The position numbers and the translations under genes are program-made. Shown here in pieces: positions 1 to 40,995 of a stretch of DNA of 64,000 nucleotides. The DNA is from an uncultured Candidatus Saccharibacteria bacterium (GTDB lineage Bacteria; Patescibacteriota; Saccharimonadia; Saccharimonadales; CAIOMD01), in assembly GCA_963716565.1 (NCBI GenBank), contig OY970318.1, positions 830 through 64,829 on the forward strand, written 5' to 3'. The notes beneath the pieces are model-generated. The model was given only the letters and a program-made list of their open reading frames with translations. It ran no database searches and had not been told where the DNA came from. Numbering within the stretch: the stretch's first letter is position 1; every line of letters begins with the position of its first letter.

Positions 1-3000
1 AATGGTAGCTATTTCTACTCCAACCTCACCATCAACAAATCTGGCGGCGTAGCTTCTTTAGCGGCCAACTATTCGGTTAGCACGGCCAACCAAAGGGTCA
101 CCATTACGGCTGGCACTCTAGCAACAGCCGGCTATACTTTGGCTTTATCTGGTGCTGGCTCTGTATTTTCTAACGACGGCACTCTAAGGGTGCAGGGCGG
201 GGAAACTTTAACCTTCACCAAAGACACTAACTCTGGAACGGTAGAATATGTTGGTACTGGAGCCACCAACTACGCCTCCCTCAACTACGGCAACACCTAC
301 TATGGTCTTACCATTAACTCTACTTCTGGCACTAACTCCTTTACGGCTGCGGCCGCCACGGCTGTAGGTAATGACTTTACTCTAACGTCTGGTACTTTTG
401 TAGCTCCTTCGGCCGCTAACCTAACCGTTTCTAGAAACTTTACTCACTTTGGTGGCAACTTTACTCATAACTCTGGCACGGTAGTTCTAAATACTACCAC
501 CATGGCCGAAGTCACTGGTTCAACTACCTTCAATAACCTAACTTGCTCTACGGGTGGTAAAACTCTTAACTTTGGAGCGGGGGATACTCAAACAGTTGTA
601 GGTACTACTACCCTCAATGGTTCAGCTGGTAATCTACTGACTCTTAACAGCAACGCTAGTCCTACTCAATGGCGGATTGATCCCCAGGGTACCAGAAGTG
701 TTTCTTATGTTGATGTTAAAGATTCCAATAACATCGCTGTGGCTTCCATTGGCCCAAGTAATTCCACTAACAGCTACAACAATACTAATTGGTTCAGCTA
801 CAGCGTTACAGCTTCGGCTGGTGCTAATGGCAGCATTGACCCTACTGGTGTTAGCAATTACGACAGCGGCTCTAGCCCCACTTATGACATCACTCCCGAT
901 CCTGGCTACCACATAGCCGATGTATTAGTAGATTCCGTTTCGGTGGGTACGCCTACTAGCTATACCTTTACTAACATCACCGCTAACCACACCATCTCTG
1001 TTACCTTTACCATAGATACTTACACCATCACCGCCTCCGCCGGCAGCAACGGTGCTATTGACCCAGTGGGCACCGATACTTACAACCTCGGCGACAATGC
1101 CACCTACGACATTACCCCCAACGCCAACTACCACATTGCCGACGTCCTAGTAGATAGCGTATCCGTCGGTACTCCCACCAGCTACACCTTTACCAACATC
1201 GTAACTAACCACACCATTAGCGTTAGCTTCGCCATCGACACCAAAACTATAACCGCCTCCTCCGGCGCCAATGGCAGTATTGATCCGACTGGCACAGTAA
1301 CCGTTAACTACGGCAGCGACCAAACCTTCACTATTACAGCTGACCCCGGTTACCAAGTTGACGATGTGCTAGTTGACTCCGTCAGCGTCGGCGCTCTAAC
1401 CGAATACACTTTCACTAATGTCACTACTAACCACACCATTAGTGCTAGCTTCACTATTAACACTTACACCATCACCGCCTCCGCCGGCAGCAACGGTGCT
1501 ATTGACCCAGTGGGCACCGATACTTACAACCTCGGCGACAATGCCACCTACGACATTACCCCCAACGCCAACTACCACATTGCCGACGTCCTAGTAGATA
1601 GCGTATCCGTCGGTACTCCCACCAGCTACACCTTTACCAACATCGTAACTAACCACACCATTAGCGTTAGCTTCGCCATCGACACCAAAACTATAACCGC
1701 CTCCTCCGGCGCCAATGGCAGTATTGATCCGACTGGCACAGTAACCGTTAACTACGGCAGCGACCAAACCTTCACTATTACAGCTGACCCCGGTTACCAA
1801 GTTGACGATGTGCTAGTTGACTCCGTCAGCGTCGGCGCTCTAACCGAATACACTTTCACTAATGTCACTACTAACCACACCATTAGTGCTAGCTTCACTA
1901 TTAACACTTACACCATCACCGCCTCCGCCGGCAGCAACGGTGCTATTGACCCAGTGGGCACCGATACTTACAACCTCGGCGACAATGCCACCTACGACAT
2001 TACCCCCAACGCCAACTACCACATTGCCGACGTCCTAGTAGATAGCGTATCCGTCGGTACTCCCACCAGCTACACCTTTACCAACATCGTAACTAACCAC
2101 ACCATTAGCGTTAGCTTCGCCATCGACACCAAAACTATAACCGCCTCCTCCGGCGCCAATGGCAGTATTGATCCGACTGGCACAGTAACCGTTAACTACG
2201 GCAGCGACCAAACCTTCACTATTACAGCTGACCCCGGTTACCAAGTTGACGATGTGCTAGTCGACTCCGTCAGTGTCGGCGCTCTAACCGAATACACTTT
2301 CACTAATGTCACTACTAACCACACCATTAGTGCTAGCTTCACTATTAACACTTACACCATCACCGCCTCCGCCGGCAGCAACGGTGCTATTGACCCAGTG
2401 GGCACCGATACTTACAACCTCGGCGACAATGCCACCTACGACATTACCCCCAACGCCAACTACCACATTGCCGACGTCCTAGTAGATAGCGTATCCGTCG
2501 GTACTCCCACCAGCTACACCTTTACCAACATCGTAACTAACCACACCATTAGCGTTAGCTTCGCCATCGACACCAAAACTATAACCGCCTCCTCCGGCGC
2601 CAATGGCAGTATTGATCCGACTGGCACAGTAACCGTTAACTACGGCAGCGACCAAACCTTCACTATTACAGCTGACCCCGGTTACCAAGTTGACGATGTG
2701 CTAGTTGACTCCGTCAGCGTCGGCGCTCTAACCGAATACACTTTCACTAATGTCACTACTAACCACACCATTAGTGCTAGCTTCACTATTAACACTTACA
2801 CCATCACCGCCTCCGCCGGCAGCAACGGTGCTATTGACCCAGTGGGCACCGATACTTACAACCTCGGCGACAATGCCACCTACGACATTACCCCCAACGC
2901 CAACTACCACATTGCCGACGTCCTAGTAGATAGCGTATCCGTCGGTACTCCCACCAGCTACACCTTTACCAACATCGTAACTAACCACACCATTAGCGTT

Positions 3001-3636
3001 AGCTTCGCCATCGACACCAAAACTATAACCGCCTCCTCCGGCGCCAATGGCAGTATTGATCCGACTGGCACAGTAACCGTTAACTACGGCAGCGACCAAA
3101 CCTTCACTATTACAGCTGACCCCGGTTACCAAGTTGACGATGTGCTAGTCGACTCCGTCAGCGTCGGCGCTCTAACCGAATACACTTTCACTAATGTCAC
3201 TACTAACCATACGATTAGCGCTAGCTTCACGATCATTCCCGTTGTTACCCCAACACCTACGCCAACTCCCGCCTCCACGCCTACACCCACTCCGGCTTCA
3301 ATCTTTGTATCTGGGCAAATGCCTGCCTCTACGCCGACCCCAACCCCAACTCCCGAAGAAATGGCCTCTACAGAAAACCAAGCAGAAACCAACAAAGAGG
3401 CTGCCCAGTCTGGAAGCTCCAACAAATCATTAGCCATCTTTATTGCTTGCTTGGGTGGCTTTGCATTATCCTTATCGGTTTTCGGATTTTGGTATCATGC
3501 TCGACGAAGATACGATGATGCCACTAACCAGGCGTATCACCAAGTAGCAGGGAGCGAAGTTAAAGCCCAGACAATTGCACCCAATAGCCAAACGGCTTCG
3601 CAATACGATCAACCCCCTAATCGCAATATCTTTTAG
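1..3636 (+). CDS. Repeat-rich cell-surface protein, 5' end cut by the window edge (beta-helix-like region, Ig-like 'InlB B-repeat'-type modules, Pro/Thr linker, C-terminal membrane anchor)
   Basis: Frame 1 is open from base 1 (NGSYFYSNLTINKSGGVASLAANYSVSTANQRVTITAGTLATAGYTLALSGAG...). This matches the interior of the next gene, so the TTG at 139 in the ORF track is not the true start. The protein has about 74-aa modules of the form Y.ITAS.G.NG.I.P.G....Y.ITP..GY.I.DVLVDS.SVG....YTFTN(I/V)T.NHTIS.SF. A PT-rich linker lies at about 3235-3360. A hydrophobic segment LAIFIACLGGFALSLSVFGFWY followed by HARRR forms the anchor. Confidence 0.85.
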   Translation, partial: NGSYFYSNLTINKSGGVASLAANYSVSTANQRVTITAGTLATAGYTLALSGAGSVFSNDGTLRVQGGETLTFTKDTNSGTVEYVGTGATNYASLNYGNTYYGLTINSTSGTNSFTAAAATAVGNDFTLTSGTFVAPSAANLTVSRNFTHFGGNFTHNSGTVVLNTTTMAEVTGSTTFNNLTCSTGGKTLNFGAGDTQTVVGTTTLNGSAGNLLTLNSNASPTQWRIDPQGTRSVSYVDVKDSNNIAVASIGPSNSTNSYNNTNWFSYSVTASAGANGSIDPTGVSNYDSGSSPTYDITPDPGYHIADVLVDSVSVGTPTSYTFTNITANHTISVTFTIDTYTITASAGSNGAIDPVGTDTYNLGDNATYDITPNANYHIADVLVDSVSVGTPTSYTFTNIVTNHTISVSFAIDTKTITASSGANGSIDPTGTVTVNYGSDQTFTITADPGYQVDDVLVDSVSVGALTEYTFTNVTTNHTISASFTINTYTITASAGSNGAIDPVGTDTYNLGDNATYDITPNANYHIADVLVDSVSVGTPTSYTFTNIVTNHTISVSFAIDTKTITASSGANGSIDPTGTVTVNYGSDQTFTITADPGYQVDDVLVDSVSVGALTEYTFTNVTTNHTISASFTINTYTITASAGSNGAIDPVGTDTYNLGDNATYDITPNANYHIADVLVDSVSVGTPTSYTFTNIVTNHTISVSFAIDTKTITASSGANGSIDPTGTVTVNYGSDQTFTITADPGYQVDDVLVDSVSVGALTEYTFTNVTTNHTISASFTINTYTITASAGSNGAIDPVGTDTYNLGDNATYDITPNANYHIADVLVDSVSVGTPTSYTFTNIVTNHTISVSFAIDTKTITASSGANGSIDPTGTVTVNYGSDQTFTITADPGYQVDDVLVDSVSVGALTEYTFTNVTTNHTISASFTINTYTITASAGSNGAIDPVGTDTYNLGDNATYDITPNANYHIADVLVDSVSVGTPTSYTFTNIVTNHTISVSFAIDTKTITASSGANGSIDPTGTVTVNYGSDQTFTITADPGYQVDDVLVDSVSVGALTEYTFTNVTTNHTISASFTIIPVVTPTPTPTPASTPTPTPASIFVSGQMPASTPTPTPTPEEMASTENQAETNKEAAQSGSSNKSLAIFIACLGGFALSLSVFGFWYHARRRYDDATNQAYHQVAGSEVKAQTIAPNSQTASQYDQPPNRNIF
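1018..3237 (+). repeat. Five near-perfect tandem copies of a 444-bp unit (148 aa, two B-repeat-like modules each)
   Basis: The string acttacaccatcaccgcctccgccggcagc recurs at 1018, 1462, 1906, 2350 and 2794, a period of 444. The antisense ORFs in the track repeat with the same period and identical sequence. Only a few substitutions are visible (for example gttgac/gtcgac near 2260 and 3148). Confidence 0.95.
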
Positions 3637-3810: not shown

Positions 3811-11391
<7,581 letters not shown>

Positions 11392-21109: not shown

Positions 21110-22315
21110 TTACTGGGCTATGAAGGTAAGGGCGCGGCCGGTTTTGCCAGCGCGGCCAGTACGACCAATGCGGTGAATATAATCGTCGTAAGTTTTTGGT
21201 ACGGAGTAGTTTATTACGTGAGTAATATCGCTAACATCAATGCCTCTGGCAGCAACGTCGGTAGCTACTAGAATGTTGATTTCGTCTTGCTTAAATCGAT
21301 TTAAGGCTCGCTGGCGTTGGCCTTGGCTCTTGTTGCCATGAATGGCATCGGTCTTAAAACCGCGGATGCTTAACTCTTTGTTGAGTCGCTCTACGCCATG
21401 CTTGGTTTCGTCAAAGACTAAAGTCTTTTTAGTATCGGCATGAATTAGCAAATCATGTAACTTTTCGATTTTTTCTTGGCTACCACCGTATCTAATGACA
21501 TCTTGGTGTACGTTGTCGCAGGTGTCGCCACTTTTTACGGTAATCATTAGAGGGTCTCTAGAAAAAGTCTTAATTAGATCATGTACTCGGTGGTCTAATG
21601 TAGCCGAAAAGAATAACGACTGACGATTGTCGGCTAGTTTACCTAAAATGCTGCGAACGTCGTTAACAAAACCCATGTCTAGCATACGGTCAACTTCGTC
21701 TAGTATGACAATGTTAAAGTCAGACAGGCTTAGGCTGCGGCGTTCTAGGTGGTCTTTTATGCGGCCGGGTGTGCCAATAACAATGTTGGGGCGGGCACGC
21801 AAGTCGCGCAATTGTGGGCCCATAGGGCTACCGCCAATTAAAACTGCTCCGCAAATGTCGCTGCCTCTGGCAATAACGCGGCACTCGGCCTCGATTTGCT
21901 GAGCTAGCTCCCTAGTTGGGGCAATAATTAACACCTTAGAACGCGGTTCGTTTATTAAACGATTTAAGGCCGGTATAGCAAAAGCGGCCGTTTTACCGGT
22001 GCCAGTGTTGGCAATGCCGATAATATCTTTGCCACTTAATACTTCGGGAATAGTTTTATCCTGAATTGGGGTTGGTGATACATAGCCGTTTTTAGCAAGG
22101 TTGTCTTTAATCAATTTGTCGACGTTAAAATCGCTAAATTGGTTTAGTGGAGCATACTCCAAAACATCAACTACCTTGGCAGCCTTTATAAATTTAGCAG
22201 GGTCAATGTATTGACCGTGTCTAGATTGGTTAGCCCGATTTGGCCTAGAATAATTCTGGCTTCGGCGCGCGTTGGCAGACGAGAAACTTCTCGTCTTATT
22301 TCTGTAATAAGACAT
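21110..22315 (-). CDS. DEAD-box ATP-dependent RNA helicase
   Basis: The Q-motif region reads PTPIQ. Motif I is ANTGTGKTAAF, motif II is DEVD (a DEAD variant), motif III is SAT and motif VI is HRIGRTGRAG. Confidence 0.9.
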   Translation of the reverse strand: MSYYRNKTRSFSSANARRSQNYSRPNRANQSRHGQYIDPAKFIKAAKVVDVLEYAPLNQFSDFNVDKLIKDNLAKNGYVSPTPIQDKTIPEVLSGKDIIGIANTGTGKTAAFAIPALNRLINEPRSKVLIIAPTRELAQQIEAECRVIARGSDICGAVLIGGSPMGPQLRDLRARPNIVIGTPGRIKDHLERRSLSLSDFNIVILDEVDRMLDMGFVNDVRSILGKLADNRQSLFFSATLDHRVHDLIKTFSRDPLMITVKSGDTCDNVHQDVIRYGGSQEKIEKLHDLLIHADTKKTLVFDETKHGVERLNKELSIRGFKTDAIHGNKSQGQRQRALNRFKQDEINILVATDVAARGIDVSDITHVINYSVPKTYDDYIHRIGRTGRAGKTGRALTFIAQ

Positions 22316-22511
22316 AAAAAATAATCCTTTGTTGTTTAAATTTATTTACTCTAATTGTCGGTAATGAAATCGAGTAAATATTTGCTTAAACAAACCCGGA
22401 TCATTAATTAACAATATGTATACATTAGCACAATAAAAATAGTATGTCAAACCAATATTTTAGGCATTTAGCCCCTATAGGCGCATAATATATAGGAATT
22501 GAGGTTTGAAT

Positions 22512-22757
22512 ATGGCCAAAGATAGGCATTTGGATTATATGCAAGAAGAAGAAATCATTGCCGCGTTAAAAGATATGGTGTTAGACCCGGGAATGATTAC
22601 AAAACCTAGCTTTAGAGCTAATACTTTGCTGTGGCCAGACAATAAAATACCCTTTACGGAGGCTCACTTAGCCTATTTAAAGAACCATCCAGATATTGAC
22701 CCCAAACATTATTTGTCTAATTTACGCCTAATGATCCGCAAAAAGACTTATTGCTAA
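22512..22757 (+). CDS. Hypothetical protein (81 aa)
   Basis: The ORF has a GAGG upstream of ATG 22512. No motif was recognised. Confidence 0.45.
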   Translation: MAKDRHLDYMQEEEIIAALKDMVLDPGMITKPSFRANTLLWPDNKIPFTEAHLAYLKNHPDIDPKHYLSNLRLMIRKKTYC

Positions 22758-22770
22758 ATCGGTTATTGAT

Positions 22771-23184
22771 TTATTCTTGATTGGTACGATATAGCCCAAC
22801 TGGGGTTCTAGCTATCAAACCTTGGCTTTGGAGCCTAAGAAGCCGATTCTGGATCTGACCATATTGGAGGCTAGTTAAAGGTGCTCCGTCATTGATGATA
22901 AGAATGTAAGAATTAATAGTGGTTAAATTGGCTAGATCTTTACCGATGGGCCTTAGCAATTCGGTGTCGGTTATAAGTTCTTCATCGCTAAAATCAGTAT
23001 CAGTATATTTTTCTGGGCCAACATATTCTGGTTTGAGGTGCTGTGATTCTGGTAATGGGTTTTTGGAAGTTACAGCTAAGTTATCTGCTTTTGCGATTTT
23101 TCTCGCCGTAATTTTTTGGCCAATTATAGCAGCTATCTCTTCTCTAGAATGTCGGGTCGTGACCGGTGCTTCAGGTGATGTCAT
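22771..23184 (-). CDS. Hypothetical protein (137 aa)
   Basis: This ORF is convergent with 22512-22757. No motif was recognised. Confidence 0.45.
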   Translation of the reverse strand: MTSPEAPVTTRHSREEIAAIIGQKITARKIAKADNLAVTSKNPLPESQHLKPEYVGPEKYTDTDFSDEELITDTELLRPIGKDLANLTTINSYILIINDGAPLTSLQYGQIQNRLLRLQSQGLIARTPVGLYRTNQE

Positions 23185-23383
23185 GATATTCCCCTTACGC
23201 GCCCACTACTTAAAGAGTGTAGCACCATAATTTAACGATGCAAGCATAAGAGTCATATCGCCAAAGCCAGGCTTGACGGCTATTAACAAAACGTAAGTAC
23301 TATGGTATAATATGACCTCAGTCGCAGAAGGTAATTGTTTTGCGATTGAGAGGTATTTACAGGCCAAGAATGGCTTGCAACGC

Positions 23384-23770
23384 GGGACTGACTTTAGCTC
23401 GACGTTGAATATTAACAATTTATGCATGCAAGCCGGTTTGTGCACCGTTACCGTACTACAATAAGTAGATGGCAAAAACTTTCTACAGCGTGTAGCTAGC
23501 ATGTTTTCCATGCCAGCTTACGCACCAGCCCTAGTTTAATCTAAGGCGATTGCTTGGTTTGATGCCAGGTAGAACCAAAGCAGTCTCATATTTTCTGGCT
23601 GCCAATCTTGAGCACCGTTTGAGCTCATTTTTGTAAGCTTTTCGAACTGCGGCTAATAGTTTTTTGTCTGTTTTATAACTAGTAGCCTAAGACACCCCAA
23701 ACAGAATAAGCTTGTAGAGGCATGAGTTGTTGTTCGACGGACCCGGGTGCGATTCCCGGCAGTTCCACCA
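23384..23770 (+). ncRNA. ssrA: tmRNA (SsrA)
   Basis: The 5' end GGGACTGACTTTAGCTCGACG resembles the canonical GGGGCUGAUUCUGGAUUCGACG. At the 3' end the T-arm is CCGGG-tgcgatt-CCCGG, followed by CAGTTCC-A-CCA. The 7-bp acceptor stem pairs 23384-23390 with 23760-23766 and includes a G3:U70 pair. A candidate tag ORF GGC AAA AAC ... GCC CTA GTT TAA runs 23470-23538. Its reading frame is tentative. Confidence 0.85.
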
Positions 23771-23776
23771 CGTAAA

Positions 23777-23819
23777 ATTATCTAAAAAGGGACCCCTGAT
23801 GGGTCTCTTTTTAGATAAT
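23777..23819. terminator. Long AT-flanked hairpin / bidirectional intrinsic terminator after tmRNA
   Basis: The sequence is ATTATCTAAAAAGGGACCC-ctgat-GGGTCTCTTTTTAGATAAT. The pairing extends outward to CACGT (23769-23773) with ACGTG (23821-25). Confidence 0.7.
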
Positions 23820-23889
23820 CACGTGGCGCAGCCACAATTTTACGTGCCCCGTGGCGAATATATGAGCTTTACGGGGCTATAATACTAAC

Positions 23890-24156
23890 ATGAAGGGTCA
23901 TTTTGTCTACATATTGGAATCGGAAATCGATAGTTCTTGGTATATAGGTTATTCTCAAGATGTAAAACAGAGACTCTTAGCGCATAATTCTGGCAAGAAC
24001 GTGTCTACAAAACTAAAGAAACCGTGGCGGTTAATTTATTTTGAGGGCTATCTTAATAAGAGTGACGCGTTAGGCAGAGAAGAATTTTTAAAATCAGGTA
24101 GCGGACACAGGTTCATTCGCAAGCAAATTTGTCACTATTTGCTAGAAAAGAATTGA
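23890..24156 (+). CDS. GIY-YIG nuclease-family small protein
   Basis: The sequence FVYILESEIDSSWYIGYSQDVKQRLLAHNSG fits the GIY...YIG motif, followed by ...R...E. Confidence 0.75.
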   Translation: MKGHFVYILESEIDSSWYIGYSQDVKQRLLAHNSGKNVSTKLKKPWRLIYFEGYLNKSDALGREEFLKSGSGHRFIRKQICHYLLEKN

Positions 24157-24281
24157 TTGGTTTGCAAAACTTGGGGATGGAGTTTTTTTGTTTGACTAGG
24201 GGTTGTAGGGCTTTTAGCATTAGCATTTATTGGCGTTCAGCGCTATAGTATTTCTTAGAATTAACCAAGGTAAATTAATCT

Positions 24282-26180
24282 ATGGAAAACGACAACAAGC
24301 AACCCAAGGCCGAAGAATCTTTGAACGAGGAACCATCAAAAAATCAAGATGATAAAACGGAAAACGCCGAAACTTTGCCATCACCAGAGGCGGAAGCTAA
24401 AACATCCGAAAGCCCAAACCTAGAGACTGCAGAATCAAAGCCAGTTGTAGGCAGGGTCAAAAAAAGTCACAAAAAACTAGTTGCCATTATCTTAGTGGTA
24501 ATTCTTATTTTAGCCGCTGGTGGTGCTTCGGCTTATTTCTTCTATTTTCAAGATAAGTGGAACAACAATGACCAGCAAGGCGAGGGTAATAACAACCAGC
24601 AGGAACCAACCGTTACTCCAAGTGCCGAAGAACTAGATCCGCTACTGGCTAAGTTAATTAATCCAACTACCGGCGAAGTCTGGCTTAATCCAATCGTGCC
24701 CATAGAAAAGCAAGGCTATTTTACTGACAATGATGGAGACGGCTACAGTTCCGAAGATTATACCGACTATTACCAAGTTGGTACTCGGGGCGACAACACA
24801 ATTATAATGACGAGCGGCTCAGCTATGGGGCCTGGTGACAATCTGCAACTATTCGAAAGACAGCCCAGTGGCCAAGTTACCTTTGTTATTCATCCCAGCG
24901 CTAACGCAACCTATAACGAAGACTACGAAAGTTATACTACCGCCGAGCTAAGAGACAACATTTTAGTAGATCAAGCTATCCACTATGATTCACTGACCGT
25001 TCCAGACCAGATTACCTTGGATAGCGAAGCAAATATTGTACGCAAGCCGGTGTATCCTACGATTGGCAATATTTATGTTGCACCTACTCCGAATTATCCG
25101 CGGGTAGAAACTGTTATTAGGCAACTGGGTCAGGGCCAAATAGTTAAGAGCGAATACAGCAGCGTAGATACGGACTTAACATCAATTTATTATTTCTTAA
25201 AAACTGCCCTTAACACCTCTATCACTTTAGTTTATCAACCACTCGATACCGATTTGAGCCTGTACCAATGGCAAGGTGGCTATAATGGTATCAGTGATAG
25301 CCTCAAATCTATTAACAGAGGATGCGGAGGCTTAATATATAGTTCGGTTGCTAGAAGCGACGCCTTAACTGATGCGGATGTAGCAGTAGCTGGCGAATCC
25401 GGTCAGGGTTTAACCGTTTATAAAATTACTAATCTCGATAACCCTCTTGTGCTTAAAGCCTATCAAGAATTTCAGGAATCTGGTGGAAGCAGCGCTCAAT
25501 CCGAAATGTATGCGGATATTTCTAAAGACGATTTTGTTAACCAGCAGCACGCTTTAGTCGTATTTAAAGATAACTACAACCAATGGCTAGTATATATCCG
25601 TGAAACCTTTTCGCCGCCTGTCGGTTGCGCTAAACCGGTAGTTTATTTGTATCCAACGGTTAATCAGCAGGTTGCGGTTAAGGTTGGTGCCGACGTTAAG
25701 TTATCAGATCCACTGTATGATGTTCAAAAAGGCTGGCTGGCATATGCCAAAACCAATGGTCAGCTAACGGTTAATGGCCAGCAATTTAACTCTTTATTCT
25801 GGGAGGGTCTGGGCTATGGAGCTTATCCGGCGGTAACATCTGGCACAGTGGTAAGGCAGGCTGACGCTGTAAAAACAATTCGCTGGCAATTGGCTCAGCA
25901 AGGTTTGAACAATCAAGAAATTGCCGACTTTATGGATTATTGGAAAGACAAACTGCCAAGCAACCCTTACATAAGAATAACTTGGCTTAACACGGCGCAA
26001 ATGGATGTACTAGCACCGCTATATATTGCACCCAAGCCAGATACAGTAATCCGCGTGTTCTTAGATGCCGAAGGGCTGAACGAGCCAATCGATTTACCAG
26101 CCCAAGACTTAAAGCCAGCGATGCGATTGGGCTTTACGGTTGTTGAGTGGGGTGGTTTGGCCAACGGCCTGTTCCGGTAG
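24282..26180 (+). CDS. Membrane-anchored hypothetical protein (632 aa)
   Basis: The N-terminus is an acidic low-complexity region, followed by one TM segment (LVAIILVVILILAAGGASAYFFYF) and a large extracytoplasmic region. No motif was recognised. Confidence 0.6.
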   Translation: MENDNKQPKAEESLNEEPSKNQDDKTENAETLPSPEAEAKTSESPNLETAESKPVVGRVKKSHKKLVAIILVVILILAAGGASAYFFYFQDKWNNNDQQGEGNNNQQEPTVTPSAEELDPLLAKLINPTTGEVWLNPIVPIEKQGYFTDNDGDGYSSEDYTDYYQVGTRGDNTIIMTSGSAMGPGDNLQLFERQPSGQVTFVIHPSANATYNEDYESYTTAELRDNILVDQAIHYDSLTVPDQITLDSEANIVRKPVYPTIGNIYVAPTPNYPRVETVIRQLGQGQIVKSEYSSVDTDLTSIYYFLKTALNTSITLVYQPLDTDLSLYQWQGGYNGISDSLKSINRGCGGLIYSSVARSDALTDADVAVAGESGQGLTVYKITNLDNPLVLKAYQEFQESGGSSAQSEMYADISKDDFVNQQHALVVFKDNYNQWLVYIRETFSPPVGCAKPVVYLYPTVNQQVAVKVGADVKLSDPLYDVQKGWLAYAKTNGQLTVNGQQFNSLFWEGLGYGAYPAVTSGTVVRQADAVKTIRWQLAQQGLNNQEIADFMDYWKDKLPSNPYIRITWLNTAQMDVLAPLYIAPKPDTVIRVFLDAEGLNEPIDLPAQDLKPAMRLGFTVVEWGGLANGLFR

Positions 26181-26197
26181 ACCCCATTTAATATTAA

Positions 26198-26229
26198 TTG
26201 ACTATTTTTTAAGAAGTGAGATTATATTG
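26198..26229 (+). promoter_or_regulatory. Candidate sigma70-type promoter for the high-GC islet
   Basis: TTGACT lies at 26198-26203, followed by a 17-nt spacer and ATTATA/TATATT at 26221-26229. Confidence 0.35.
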
Positions 26230-26322
26230 TTGATTCCTTTGTCTGAGGAGGAGTTAGCCCTGGGATTCCCTAGGGCAAATAGTGTCTGTGCAAATCAGCA
26301 TGAACCTTGAGAGGGGAAAAAG

Positions 26323-26505
26323 ATGAAGAAGGTAGAGCGCATCGTAGAGCTGGCCACTGAGGCCAAGAAGCGGGCAGTAGACTTCGCGGGCCGCGTCAGG
26401 GGGCTTCCTGGACCCGCCAAAGTCATCGCTAGCTTTCTGGCTGGAGCGGTGGTTGCAGGAACAGCCGTTCTGCTCAAGGGTCGTTCGCAACAGCCGGCCG
26501 AGTAG
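26323..26505 (+). CDS. Small tail-anchored membrane protein (60 aa), high-GC islet gene 1
   Basis: A GAGGGG sequence precedes the ATG. The C-terminal hydrophobic segment is VIASFLAGAVVAGTAVLL. Confidence 0.5.
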   Translation: MKKVERIVELATEAKKRAVDFAGRVRGLPGPAKVIASFLAGAVVAGTAVLLKGRSQQPAE

Positions 26506-26530
26506 TCTCGCCAAGTCTCTAGGAGGAGAC

Positions 26531-26815
26531 ATGAAAAGAGTGCTTCGGTTTGTAAAGCGGGCAGCCTGGGTAGTGGTCAAGGCGCTGGCCAACGCGATTG
26601 CTATACCGTTGGCTATCGTCGGTTGGCTGGCTTGGCACATCCTTAAGGCGGTGGCTTATATAGTGATCATCTTGATCGCCATGCTGGGGATTGCCATCTG
26701 GTTTACCTGTATGTACTCCAAGGTCGGCATAGCCGAGCTGTGGATACGGATCAGCCCGCACTCCAAATGGGCCACTGAATACTTGGCCGGATGGGAAGAA
26801 GACCTATGCGACTGA
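26531..26815 (+). CDS. Small polytopic membrane protein (94 aa), high-GC islet gene 2
   Basis: A strong AGGAGG lies 5 nt before ATG 26531. The ORF-track start at 26453 is probably too far upstream. There are two to three hydrophobic segments. Confidence 0.55.
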   Translation: MKRVLRFVKRAAWVVVKALANAIAIPLAIVGWLAWHILKAVAYIVIILIAMLGIAIWFTCMYSKVGIAELWIRISPHSKWATEYLAGWEEDLCD

Positions 26816-27078
26816 TAGAGGCAAGTCTGTATGGTATTGCTGTGGCAATCATCATCATGCTTCTAATCAAGCTCGCGGAATCATTCGGCAAGCCCGAGGC
26901 GGAGCCAAACCGGTCCAGCAAAGGCTGGCCCGGCGATGACACGCTATGTGCCGGACGACGATTCCCCGTTCTGGATCCATTAGACGATCCCACGCTCGAG
27001 CTAGACACAGTCTTTCTTGGCGACCTGCCGATTGCCGACAAAGACAACTCAGACGAACAACCCCGACCGCCCATCTAG
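26806..27078 (+). CDS. Small N-terminally anchored protein (90 aa), high-GC islet gene 3
   Basis: ATG 26806 overlaps the end of gene 2. The TM segment is LYGIAVAIIIMLLI and the tail is acidic. Confidence 0.5.
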   Translation: MRLIEASLYGIAVAIIIMLLIKLAESFGKPEAEPNRSSKGWPGDDTLCAGRRFPVLDPLDDPTLELDTVFLGDLPIADKDNSDEQPRPPI

Positions 27079-27103
27079 GGCGCGTCGGGGTTGTCGCCTT
27101 TTT
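27061..27103 (+). terminator. Candidate intrinsic terminator closing the high-GC islet
   Basis: CCCCGAC ... GTCGGGG and GGCG ... CGCC stems are followed by TTTTT (27099-27103). Confidence 0.5.
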
Positions 27104-27189
27104 AGAGACTTTTTTTTATGCCTTGTCAAACAAAACTAAAAAGCTTAAGCTAAAAGATAGGTTCTAAAAAGTAATAAGGAGAATAATTA

Positions 27190-27759
27190 GTGCAAAAAAT
27201 TCATTTAAAGCTATTTAGCTTGCTGGCGGTTATGGCTTTTGTTGTTTTAGCTGTAGCACCAGTTTTAGCTGTAGCACAACAACAGGGCAATGATAGCGCT
27301 GGTTCAGATAACAGCCAAAATGTCACAGGCTCGGGCAGTGATAACGCTCAAGGCAATCGTTTGCAGGGCGAAAATCTAACAAAATGCCAAAATAAAGAAA
27401 CGCAAATTAATAACTATATGTTGCGCATTACTAATCGTGCTGAGTTGCAATACAACTTGTTTGGTACGATAGCCCAGCGCGTGCAGGCTTACTACCAAAA
27501 CAATAACTTGTCTTTAGGCAACTATAACGACTTGGTCTCTGCCGTAAATGCTACCCAGGTACAGGCTCAAAACACTTTTAGAGCTATGGAGCAAAACGGC
27601 GGTGCCTTTAATTGTGATAGCGACGATCCGCATGCCTATGCCAACCAATTTAGGAATAGCTTTAACAGTGCCGTAGATGGACTACAAGCTTATAAAAACG
27701 CAGTGCGCAACTTATTAGTGGCGGTACAAACAGTTGCCGAGGAGGCTAGTGATGAATAA
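27190..27759 (+). CDS. Secreted hypothetical protein (189 aa)
   Basis: AAGGAG precedes GTG 27190. The signal-peptide-like N-terminus is LLAVMAFVVLAVAPVLAVAQQ. Confidence 0.6.
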   Translation: MQKIHLKLFSLLAVMAFVVLAVAPVLAVAQQQGNDSAGSDNSQNVTGSGSDNAQGNRLQGENLTKCQNKETQINNYMLRITNRAELQYNLFGTIAQRVQAYYQNNNLSLGNYNDLVSAVNATQVQAQNTFRAMEQNGGAFNCDSDDPHAYANQFRNSFNSAVDGLQAYKNAVRNLLVAVQTVAEEASDE

Positions 27760-28051
27760 ATTAAAACAAGCCGGCTTTTCGGTAGTCGAAATAGCTTTAG
27801 TTATCGTGCTTTTGGGTATAGTTGGTTTTGTGGGATATAGAGTCTACGACGCCAATCGTGATGATAGTACAACCGCAGAAACAACAACGCCTACTGTCGA
27901 CCCAGCGGCTGCAACCGACGTTGGCACAGCGCCCGCAGTCGAAACGGCCAGTGATTTAGGGGAGGCACTAGAAGTGCTAGAGGCTACTGACCCATCTGGT
28001 AGTAATGTGACCGACGCTGACGCTATCGACAGCGACGTCGCCGGATTCTAG
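27752..28051 (+). CDS. Type IV pilin-like protein (prepilin N-terminal cleavage/methylation motif)
   Basis: MNKLKQAG/FSVVEIALVIVLLGIVGFVGY has the G-F junction with Glu at +5. A GAGGAGG lies 6 nt upstream of ATG 27752. The ORF-track start at 27734 is rejected. Confidence 0.8.
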   Translation: MNKLKQAGFSVVEIALVIVLLGIVGFVGYRVYDANRDDSTTAETTTPTVDPAAATDVGTAPAVETASDLGEALEVLEATDPSGSNVTDADAIDSDVAGF

Positions 28052-28069
28052 AATATAGCATTTTGTAAT

Positions 28070-28103
28070 AAGAAGAGCTGACAAAAAACAGCTCTTCTTT
28101 TGG
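28070..28103 (+). terminator. Intrinsic terminator after the pilin gene
   Basis: AAGAAGAGCTG-acaaaaaa-CAGCTCTTCTT forms the hairpin and is followed by TTTGG. Confidence 0.8.
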
Positions 28104-39416: not shown

Positions 39417-39432
39417 TTTTTAAGCTTAACCA

Positions 39433-39462
39433 TTGACTAAAAATTAAATAATTTTTTAAAGT
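39433..39462 (+). promoter_or_regulatory. Weak candidate promoter for the structured RNA
   Basis: TTGACT lies at 39433-39438, followed by an 18-nt spacer and TAAAGT at 39457-39462. Confidence 0.3.
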
Positions 39463-39468
39463 GTTTTT

Positions 39469-39924
39469 TGCTATTATTTAAAGAACCTCTTGTTGGGAGG
39501 TCTTGGGGGACTATAAGCAAGCGGTCCGGGCAAATCGGGGCATCACGTTTTGTTCAAGTAATGAACCGTACGGGCTTGATCTGTGATGAGTTAGCGGTGA
39601 CACTCAACAACACCAGCCGGGGTGCCCTTAGGGGCTACCACCAATACGCATGGGTTTACCCAGCCGTGGCGAAGAGCCAACGGCCCGAGTCACTCCTTGA
39701 TGTATGGGGGTGACATCCATCTGTGTTACCTGTGGCTCAGGTATAGGCGGAAGCGCCTTATCAGGGCCATCAAGGTCAAGACCACTGTGGGGGTATCCAA
39801 AACCTATGCGCCTTCCAGGCAGGCACGAAACCAAGTTCCCCGGTTTGCCTTTCGTGCCTGAAAACTCTGCGGATAGTCCAGTGGTATCCATTCCATCTGG
39901 GCTATCCGCTATAACCATAGTCTT
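39469..39924 (+). ncRNA. GC-rich structured non-coding region directly upstream of the RT; candidate retron msr-msd RNA (boundaries uncertain)
   Basis: GC rises to 58% (counted over 39601-39660) against 17% in 39421-39480. The ORF track shows overlapping ORFs in several frames on both strands with no SD or start context, a typical non-coding signature. An 11-bp perfect hairpin pairs 39820-39830 with 39850-39860. A 13 to 16-bp hairpin spans 39869-39909. A 13-bp long-range complement pairs GGGCAAATCGGGG (39528-39540) with CCCCGGTTTGCCT (39838-39850). Confidence 0.55.
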
Positions 39925-40995
39925 ATGAGCCAGATACAATTATTTGATCCAGAAGCATTAATGCAACCAGCGGTTGACCCCAGGGTCGAAAAATTATTGA
40001 GTGGCTTTGAGGACGCTAGCTTTAGGACATTCCCAAAACAAGAGCGCGATAAAGTTCGTTGGCTGCACGATCCCAACGAAAGCATGCGAGAGGCACATGA
40101 ACTTATTAAAGAGCTCGCTGCGAATGCTAGTGCCATATCGCCACATGCCACTGGGCTACAAGGTGGTAGTCGTGCCAATGCTGAACGGCATTTGGGCAAT
40201 AAGTTTTTTTATTTGATTGATTTAAAAGATGCCTACGGACAAATACAATTACCAGCGCTTGCAGAATTTTTAGGCAACCATGGCTTTCCAGCCGAGACTG
40301 CTGACATCGAAACTATTTTAAATCGTTTTTGTCGCAAACCCGACGGGCAGGGTCTTTGCCAAGGGGGCCCAGCCTCGCCGTTACTATTTAACATTGCCCT
40401 TTATGATGTCGACCAACAAATAGCGGGAATATGCGAAAAGCATGAACTAACTTATACGCGATATGCGGATGATTTGGCTATTTCTGGCCGTGAATCAATT
40501 GGCGATAAGAAGCGTAAGCAAATACGTGGAGTTCTTGAAGAGGCTGGGTTAGAAATTAGCCATAAAAAGACTCACCGCCATAGTTTGGCGAATGCTCCTG
40601 TAGTTGTGACTGGCATTCAGATAAATCGCAGCGGTTCAATTATTTTACCTACGCCCAAACAGCTAAGAGTAGCTAATATTATAAATGAGCTGTGCTTTCA
40701 AGTATTCGAGGATGGCGAACCATTAACCGAATTGCAGGTCCAAAAGGTGGCTGGCTACAAAGGCATGGTTATGTCTGCTATCGATGGGCGTCGAAAAGAT
40801 CTAACGGCTTTCGAAAAAGATGCTCTTGTAAAAGCCGAAGCATTAAGACTTTCGTATAAGCAGAGTAGGGAGACGGTCAATTTGGGCTTCACGGCTCTTA
40901 GATTATTCAATGGTCGACCGATGCAAATCGAAATTGTCGATGGTAGATTCCGCAGAGTAGTCGGCCCATCATTTGAACTGCCAAAACGGGATTAA
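39925..40995 (+). CDS. Retron-type reverse transcriptase (356 aa)
   Basis: Motifs in order are SRANAERH (NAxxH), YLIDLKDAY, LCQGGPASPLLFN (QGxxxSP), YTRYADDLAIS (YADD codons 40462-40473), SHKKT and PVVVTGIQIN (VTG). The protein aligns by eye along its whole length with retron Ec86 RT. Confidence 0.85.
   Translation: MSQIQLFDPEALMQPAVDPRVEKLLSGFEDASFRTFPKQERDKVRWLHDPNESMREAHELIKELAANASAISPHATGLQGGSRANAERHLGNKFFYLIDLKDAYGQIQLPALAEFLGNHGFPAETADIETILNRFCRKPDGQGLCQGGPASPLLFNIALYDVDQQIAGICEKHELTYTRYADDLAISGRESIGDKKRKQIRGVLEEAGLEISHKKTHRHSLANAPVVVTGIQINRSGSIILPTPKQLRVANIINELCFQVFEDGEPLTELQVQKVAGYKGMVMSAIDGRRKDLTAFEKDALVKAEALRLSYKQSRETVNLGFTALRLFNGRPMQIEIVDGRFRRVVGPSFELPKRD

Follow-up and report, generated by a model that had tools for sequence, protein, structure and literature searches.

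A GC-rich islet upstream of metG in a Saccharimonadales genome as a candidate imported operon for three small orphan membrane proteins

We studied a stretch of 64,000 nucleotides from an uncultured Candidatus Saccharibacteria bacterium (contig OY970318.1 of assembly GCA_963716565.1; this whole stretch is the window, and all coordinates refer to it), in which a short GC-rich islet lies between the tmRNA gene and metG. With moderate confidence, we read this islet as ~0.85 kb of recently acquired foreign DNA (roughly 26245-27100) that forms a self-contained operon with real open reading frames (ORFs). Taken separately, the foreign origin of the islet is very probable and, given that origin, its ORFs are likely to be genuine genes. 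An earlier note, drawn up from the letters of this DNA, had singled out the islet for its composition and for three small membrane-protein ORFs with signals of their own.

The composition of the islet is foreign to the genome, as that note had claimed. Its hand-counted GC contents of 60-bp segments were reproduced exactly (0.233 at 26181-26240, 0.617 at 26401-26460 and 0.267 at 27101-27160). GC content is 0.545 over 26198-27105 and 0.565 over the ORF block (26323-27078), having already risen to 0.50 in the leader (26227-26322), while the mean of the window is 0.443 with a standard deviation of 0.032 for segments of 756 bp. Only 0.06% of such segments are as GC-rich, all of them overlapping the islet, which is the GC maximum of the whole 64 kb. 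The contrast is milder than a jump from 23% to 62% implies: the genome is mid-GC (44%) and not low-GC, and the values of 23-27% belong to ordinary AT-rich spacers (GC 0.25) on either side of the islet. The tetranucleotide distance of the islet from the window mean has a z-score of 2.6, and larger distances occur only within 1000-3250, in a repetitive surface-protein gene.

Codon usage tells the same story. When the three islet proteins were back-translated with codon frequencies taken from 14 confident native genes, a GC content of 0.476 and a GC content at third codon positions (GC3) of 0.41 were expected, against observed values of 0.570 and 0.643 (z 8.7 and 7.7, respectively). Judged by this expectation, about one quarter of the GC excess comes from proteins rich in Ala, Gly, Arg and Pro and the rest from synonymous choice. 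Each ORF departs on its own, with a GC3 of 0.64 against 0.39 expected in ORF1 (z 4.0), 0.69 against 0.44 in ORF2 (z 5.4) and about 0.60 against 0.40 in ORF3 (z 4.0). The same measure gave native-like values (GC3 z from -1.7 to +0.4) for six nearby small ORFs: that of a GIY-YIG protein, two hypothetical ones upstream of the tmRNA gene, those of a 189-aa protein and a pilin-like protein, and one of 169 aa. An index resembling the codon adaptation index (CAI) was 0.50-0.56 for the three ORFs and 0.73 +/- 0.03 for long native genes, whose minimum was 0.68, which places the islet below every native gene. Atypical composition and codon usage of the kind expected of a horizontally acquired islet are thus present, and from them we infer a horizontal origin. 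Given how GC3 generally scales with genomic GC, values of 0.59-0.69 point to a donor of ~55% GC, and actinobacteria of 65-72% GC typically have a GC3 of at least 0.85. This suggests that the donor was not such an actinobacterium but an organism of ~55% GC, unless the segment has partly adapted to the composition of its recipient. Some Saccharimonadales loci themselves reach a GC content of 0.51-0.53.

The islet has the layout of an independent transcription unit, with a promoter-like site, a leader, three ORFs and a terminator, all on the + strand. The promoter that had been proposed (TTGACT-17-ATTATA) is indeed present at 26198-26226 as a sigma-70-like match to the consensus, consisting of TTGACT, a 16/17-nt spacer and (G)ATTAT(A) with a TG ahead of the -10 box, but a match of 9 of 12 positions is no commoner here than in shuffled sequence. 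Because the quality of the match is at chance level, a promoter function is read from position alone: the site falls in an AT-rich spacer (GC 0.25) shortly after the stop codon (26180) of the upstream gene, which encodes a membrane-anchored protein of 632 aa. The 5' untranslated leader that follows is ~90 nt long (26227-26322) and contains two hairpins side by side (26231-26256 and 26257-26276); the second had been noticed before and folds as an 8-bp stem. As a whole the leader folds with a free energy (dG) of -32.4, weakly better than shuffles (z -1.9). The first hairpin sequesters a GAGGAGGAG run, behind which there is no start codon, and an upstream ORF (uORF) of 8 codons (ATG 26300), lacking a Shine-Dalgarno (SD) motif, ends in ATGA on the start of ORF1. 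At the other end of the unit, the predicted intrinsic terminator (27058-27103) is formed by a long GC-rich hairpin at 27058-27096 and a T-run at 27099-27103. None of 200 shuffles folded as well as this hairpin (dG -35.7 kcal/mol, z -6.1), in agreement with the terminator that had been placed after the ORFs. The stop codon of ORF3 sits in the loop of the hairpin, and a further T-run is found at 27110-27117.

A long leader with strong SD sites is somewhat unusual in this genome, although the native genes of the 189-aa and the pilin-like proteins also carry SDs. When the first start codon of each ORF was taken as the start, many native genes (e.g., those starting at 23890, 11489, 37928, 19064 and 28165) showed a TATAAT-like box 5-8 nt before it and no SD motif, and only 6 of 23 showed an SD-like motif, which suggests that leaderless mRNAs are widespread in this genome.

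The three ORFs encode proteins of 60, 94 and 90 aa, each with a hydrophobic segment of transmembrane (TM) length, as had been described. All of them start with ATG, and together they fill the space between promoter and terminator. ORF1 (26323-26505) has a GAGG 8 nt upstream of its ATG, and ORF2 (26531-26815) is preceded at a distance of 4 nt by AGGAGG, the strong SD that had been pointed out ahead of ATG 26531. ORF3 (26806-27078) begins with an ATG within the last 10 nt of ORF2 and is probably translated by coupling through this overlap with the ORF2 stop. Of 78 start-like triplets in the islet, only five have an SD-like motif ahead of them, the starts of ORF1 and ORF2 included. The + strand is favoured as the coding one because the second codon position has the lowest GC content (GC2) in ORF1, ORF2 and ORF3, unlike in the two antisense ORFs (128 and 107 aa), where GC2 is at least as high as GC1; the products of the latter would be rich in Ser, Arg and Gly, and they found no match in Pfam.

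The predicted proteins differ in their layout. ORF1 has a basic, amphipathic helical N-terminal half and a C-terminal hydrophobic segment (residues ~31-53), which from its sequence is a predicted tail-anchored topology. ORF2 starts with a basic N-terminus (MKRVLRFVKR), continues with a hydrophobic stretch of 52 residues that is broken by HILK, and ends in a helical tail of ~30 aa; we read it as a putative two-TM hairpin with a tight turn at HILK. Its single-sequence AlphaFold2 model consists of one long helix and two short tail helices and adds little to this. In ORF3, an N-terminal TM helix (residues 2-27) precedes an acidic, Pro/Asp-rich tail of 63 aa, and the corresponding model shows a helix and an unstructured tail, with a predicted local distance difference test (pLDDT) score of ~55 in the tail.

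The three proteins are all orphans. Searched against 5.8 billion protein clusters, in which Actinobacteria are included, ORF1, ORF2 and ORF3 matched only themselves, and a full HMMER search with ORF2, run without a word filter, likewise returned only the self-match among 1.84 billion representatives. Pfam gave nothing for the islet proteins at E-values up to 10, the best match in PHROGs was to a family of unknown function (E 0.12), and there was no match in NCBIfam, in PADLOC or among the sequences of the PDB. At the nucleotide level, blastn of the islet against phage and plasmid collections (50,697 phage genomes) found no match; tblastn with ORF2 and ORF3 against phages and plasmids was also negative, as was a search of IMG/VR viral contigs with each of the three ORFs. 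A metagenome scan with the 632-aa neighbour protein returned nothing. Neither a homologue nor a donor lineage was thus found in the protein, phage, plasmid and viral collections searched.

Next, we considered the locus, which lies on a source contig of 799,209 bp. The best matches of the methionyl-tRNA synthetase (MetRS) encoded by metG are 60-80% identical, and nearly all are titled Saccharibacteria or Saccharimonadales, in line with the guess of the earlier note that the organism belongs to the Saccharibacteria. The surroundings are of housekeeping type, with genes for an ABC transporter, KsgA, a DEAD helicase, MetRS, TatD, a NifS-like protein, ATP synthase and MnmA. From the tmRNA gene (23384-23770) onwards, the order is a small GIY-YIG gene, the 632-aa gene, the islet, the gene of the 189-aa secreted protein, the pilin-like gene and metG. 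The islet therefore begins ~2.4 kb past the 3' end of the tmRNA gene (23770), with genes of native composition (GIY-YIG and 632-aa) in between. Pfam searches of all ORFs from the DEAD helicase to metG, and of the flanking genes, revealed no integrase, recombinase, transposase or phage gene, and no endolysin, integrase or phage gene of any kind lies within 10 kb on either side of the islet.

The interval between tmRNA and metG is rearrangement-prone and varies between lineages. The islet was absent from all 64 related loci, including that of the closest relative (73-80% MetRS identity), which lacks the flanking genes as well, and none of these loci showed a true empty site. Scans anchored on metG retrieved relatives at most 80% identical, all without the genes that flank the islet; where MetRS is 60-74% identical, metG-tatD-nifS is kept, and the islet and its neighbours are found in none. 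The best syntenic relative (L032; 73% identity in MetRS and 68% in the DEAD helicase) carries the DEAD helicase, GIY-YIG and tmRNA genes and then wholly different cargo before metG. In a comparison of 22300-28100 of the window with 5100-10000 of this relative, the tmRNA and GIY-YIG genes, as a pair, have the opposite orientation with respect to the DEAD helicase and metG.

In three of the relatives, one high-GC gene stands a few kilobases ahead of metG (L032 7630-8148, L049 4514-5143 and L012 4229-4765), with a GC3 of 0.62-0.67 against 0.25-0.43 in the neighbouring genes of the same loci. These genes encode secreted proteins of 172-209 aa with an ES-GG...GL(M/F)QV motif, which we take to resemble that of lytic transglycosylases, although Pfam does not confirm it; they had no match in Pfam, PDB, phage or Rfam searches. 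They have in common a conserved leader of ~90 nt, CCGGAGGCCA...(A/G)TGGGGTGT...GCCGCATAC...AAGGAG, which includes an SD and a Met-Gly-Cys uORF, and each cassette (L032 7500-8330, L012 4100-4900 and L049 4440-5300) ends in a GC-rich hairpin terminator. The cassettes are like the islet in neighbourhood, in GC3 level, in having a leader of their own and a GC-rich terminator, and in an envelope-directed product; they differ from it in that neither protein nor leader sequence is common to them and the islet, and a comparison of the islet leader with the conserved leader of the relatives showed no homology. We rejected the idea that the islet is a degraded copy of the transglycosylase-like gene: the tblastn matches behind it (E 0.01-0.03 against a 1-kb database, with nine queries) were antisense, in inconsistent frames, and mapped the same protein region twice.

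Taken together, these features would fit a simple course of expression. Transcription would start a few bases past the -10 box, at ~26233, and stop at the hairpin terminator (27058-27103), so that one mRNA would carry three short genes tiling the unit on one strand. ORF1 and ORF2 would be translated from their own SDs and ORF3 by coupling. The three products would then come together in the cell membrane, either forming a small complex or serving as one membrane-acting protein and its partners. The interval from tmRNA to metG may act as a hot spot for lineage-specific envelope genes, because its gene content differs among relatives.

Several observations weigh against an imported operon of real genes. 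Without homologues, there is no evolutionary evidence for selection on any of the ORFs or for their translation. ORFs of ~100 codons arise by chance in DNA of 56% GC, and the antisense strand does hold two of 128 and 107 aa. The scan of start-like triplets in the islet found no recognisable SD for ORF3, and 9-of-12 promoter matches occur at chance frequency (8 seen against 8.1 expected in shuffles). The ORF block folds somewhat better than its dinucleotide shuffles (z -2.7, with none of 20 as good), which a native control does not (z +0.9). The locus yielded no integrase, no transposase and no target duplication, and the collections searched yielded no donor. Lastly, an independent assembly of the region in Logan breaks at ~27141-27166, just after the islet.

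The first alternative is that the islet is imported but inert, its ORFs being fortuitous or the remains of a decayed gene of ~250 aa with four TM segments that two frameshifts have split, so that nothing in it is functional. The orphan status of all three proteins agrees with this, as do the chance ORFs of similar length on the opposite strand and the lack of an SD ahead of ORF3. Moreover, the frame of ORF2, if read from TTG 26453, already begins within the last part of ORF1, and the frame of ORF3 does the same in ORF2, as frameshifted pieces would. We nonetheless consider inert DNA unlikely: AGGAGG and GAGG stand at the right distance from the first ATG of ORF2 and ORF1, respectively, a motif that only 5 in 78 start-like triplets have; ORF1 is separated from ORF2 by 25 nt that hold the SD of the latter; the unit is framed by an intact promoter-like site and a very strong terminator; and each ORF was searched singly, with no larger homologue coming to light.

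A remnant lysis or moron cassette of a phage is a rather improbable source. ORF2 would then be a class-II-like holin with two TM helices and both ends inside the cell (N-in/C-in), and ORF1 and ORF3 would be accessory or antiholin-like proteins. The small size, the two predicted TM helices, the basic N-terminus and the foreign composition are what such a cassette would show, and a tmRNA gene is nearby; tmRNA genes are frequent integration targets (PMC4383910). Set against this are the PHROG match at an E-value no better than 0.12, the lack of any match in the 50,697 phage genomes or the IMG/VR contigs, the lack of an endolysin, an integrase or a phage gene within 10 kb on either side, the lack of a displaced tmRNA fragment in the 64 kb, and the absence of a dual-start motif. 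The role in holin/lysis or toxin-immunity that the earlier note had raised is thereby left as speculation, there being no PHROG or PADLOC match, no lysin, and no phage or mobile genes nearby.

That note had also proposed that the DNA was captured from a high-GC actinobacterial host, an idea to which we give little credence. The genome is that of a Saccharimonadales bacterium, cultured members of this order live on Actinobacteria, and the islet is richer in GC than the genome around it. However, no protein or DNA match was found, with the well-sampled Actinobacteria included: there was no homologue in the 5.8 billion clusters, and none for ORF2 in the 1.84 billion representatives. The GC3 of 0.59-0.69 is also far under the level of at least 0.85 generally known for actinobacteria of 65-72% GC, and other Saccharimonadales (GC up to 0.52-0.53) are equally plausible donors.

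It is very improbable that the islet is a structured non-coding RNA and not a coding sequence, the finding that the earlier note had said would overturn its view. The folding of the ORF block speaks for such an RNA (none of the 20 shuffles being as good, and the native control standing at z +0.9), but over the full transcribed unit the antisense strand (z -5.2) scores at least as well as the sense strand (z -4.1), which points to composition or palindromic terminators and not to a specific fold. Rfam gave no match in the islet at the gathering score, and the two matches that appeared at E <=1, on the terminator and the spacer, were at chance level; codon-position GC, the SDs and the TM segments all fit coding.

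An assembly chimera or a contaminant insertion, for which the abrupt change of composition and the Logan break ~60-90 bp after the islet could be cited, is hardly credible, since a short-read Logan contig of 3434 bp (run ERR12035938, perhaps the source of the published genome too) extends from the native 632-aa gene through ORF1, ORF2 and ORF3 and for another 88 bp into native-like AT-rich spacer, and since the edges of the islet are a promoter and a terminator, not arbitrary break points. The left junction was thus assembled separately and the right side is covered into the AT-rich spacer, so that the islet is not an obvious chimera, as had been requested for checking in the first description of it; an independent gene caller predicted the same three genes on the Logan assembly. 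The next Logan contig, which carries the genes of the 189-aa and pilin-like proteins and the first part of metG, shares ~26 bp with the end of the 3434-bp one. The break could reflect a presence/absence polymorphism or population heterogeneity, or just low coverage. The downstream contig (1510 bp) is recorded in 2 samples and the islet-bearing one in 1.

Returning to the recently acquired operon that we favour, its composition, its neighbourhood and its putative envelope products suggest, by analogy, that the islet and the cassettes of the three relatives may have a common source or mechanism. A bolder version of this idea, which we put forward as a long shot, is that the islet belongs to an undescribed class of self-contained cassettes, with a GC3 of ~0.6-0.7, a leader of their own and a strong hairpin terminator. 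Such cassettes would have reached the variable interval ahead of metG time and again in Saccharimonadales, all from one donor pool (such as a phage, the host or a mobile element not yet recognised), and would encode envelope-acting proteins for the interaction between epibiont and host. Its contents may be lytic-transglycosylase-like secreted proteins in the three relatives and the trio of small membrane proteins in the window.

As for how the DNA arrived, two matches flanking the islet were considered and set aside as being at chance level by a rough estimate for the 4.9-kb region: an inverted match of 15 nt (24186-24200 / 27121-27135, 93% complementary) and a direct match of 19 nt (24199-24217 / 27087-27105, 79% identical). 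Direct repeats flanking the islet did not rise above chance, and a search of the 64 kb with the last 20 nt of the tmRNA gene and the preceding 21 nt, allowing up to 3 mismatches, found no displaced fragment beyond the gene itself.

Other features of the window deserve mention in their own right. Downstream of the islet, the pilin-like protein (99 aa, 27752-28051) has a prepilin-type N-terminal methylation motif that scores just under the curated cut-offs (17.8 against 21.2 bits for Pfam N_methyl and 15.2 against 16.3 bits for TIGR02532) and a tail rich in Thr, Ala, Pro and Asp; the start of its gene overlaps the end of the 189-aa gene. In the signal-peptide region of the latter, an exact direct repeat of 16 nt, GTTTTAGCTGTAGCAC, with a spacing of 18 nt (27244-27277), doubles the motif VLAVAP/VLAVAQ. 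Two giant surface proteins are encoded at 139-3636 (at least 1165 aa, with a 5' end that is maybe incomplete) and 3811-11391 (2526 aa). In each, near-identical repeats of ~85 aa follow one another in long tandem runs, and the two proteins have a long identical N-proximal block in common. The C-terminus of the 2526-aa protein looks by eye to be of histidine-kinase type, and nowhere in the window does the tetranucleotide signature deviate more than in this region. Finally, a gap of ~500 nt on the + strand (39430-39925, GC 0.535), between the MnmA-like gene and the next ORF, contains GGUCCGGGC and no convincing ORF, and had no Rfam match at E <=1. It folds with a dG of -193 kcal/mol (z -5.8) on the + strand and with a z of -3.5 on the - strand, and candidates for it are a divergent RNase P RNA or a structured RNA of some other kind.

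Our best guess at function, judged by architecture only, is a holin-like or toxin-plus-immunity module, or else a membrane-stress module like YqjD/YqjE/YqjK. Compared with islands linked to tRNA or tmRNA genes (Islander/TIGER type), the islet is alike in being foreign DNA a few kb downstream of a tmRNA gene, in a variable interval. It differs in its size of 0.85 kb, in having no tyrosine integrase, displaced tmRNA 3' end or flanking repeats, and in the genes of native composition (GIY-YIG and 632-aa) that separate it from the tmRNA gene. According to PMC4383910, tmRNA genes are often integration targets, and the far end of such an island is recognised by a displaced piece of the target gene. 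A classical tmRNA-integrated island is ruled out here: the islet, ~2.4 kb away, does not abut the 3' end of the target, and an integrase, a displaced tmRNA fragment and flanking repeats are all missing.

The class II holins and small lysis cassettes of phages resemble the islet in a short protein (less than 100 aa) that has charged ends and two predicted TM helices and is encoded in a small foreign cassette. Unlike them, the islet has no match to PHROGs or phage genomes, no endolysin and no phage context; neither Pfam nor PHROGs places its proteins in a holin family, and late genes are not found around it. The yqjD-yqjE-yqjK genes of E. coli come close in architecture: they too encode three small membrane proteins, with a tail-anchored one first and a two-TM hairpin second, and the stop of their second gene and the start of the third overlap by 11 nt, against 10 nt in the islet. 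The differences lie in the lengths (101, 134 and 99 aa against 60, 94 and 90 aa), in the third protein (YqjK has no TM segment by the same hydropathy measure by which ORF3 has an N-terminal TM helix) and in the sequences, which show no similarity (pairwise blastp E >=0.9). The RefSeq annotation of the E. coli genes prints 'DUF883' and 'PF13997'; we take DUF883 to be PF05957 and assume the assignment to a YqjE-type two-TM family. None of the DUF883, YqjE-type and PF13997 families matched the islet proteins in Pfam at E-values up to 10, and membership in YqjD/YqjE/YqjK is ruled out on sequence by Pfam and blastp; the gene order agrees, and the resemblance is one of architecture only.

We therefore file the islet neither with holin-like or toxin-plus-immunity modules nor with the YqjD/E/K family. 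With no identifiable donor, insertion mechanism, homologue or function in the searches made, it is mildly interesting and not surprising, and its interest is modest because small orphan membrane proteins abound in genomes of this kind. Saccharibacteria grow on other bacteria, their genomes are very small, and they are believed to acquire new genes only rarely. A cleanly delimited operon of recent import would show that gene import continues in them and would pinpoint a landing site on the chromosome. Its three orphan membrane proteins, if expressed, might serve the envelope in ways particular to the lineage (such as attachment, immunity or membrane stress), which annotation by homology cannot reach. 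In sum, the segment is a clear small compositional islet and probably an orphan operon of horizontal origin.

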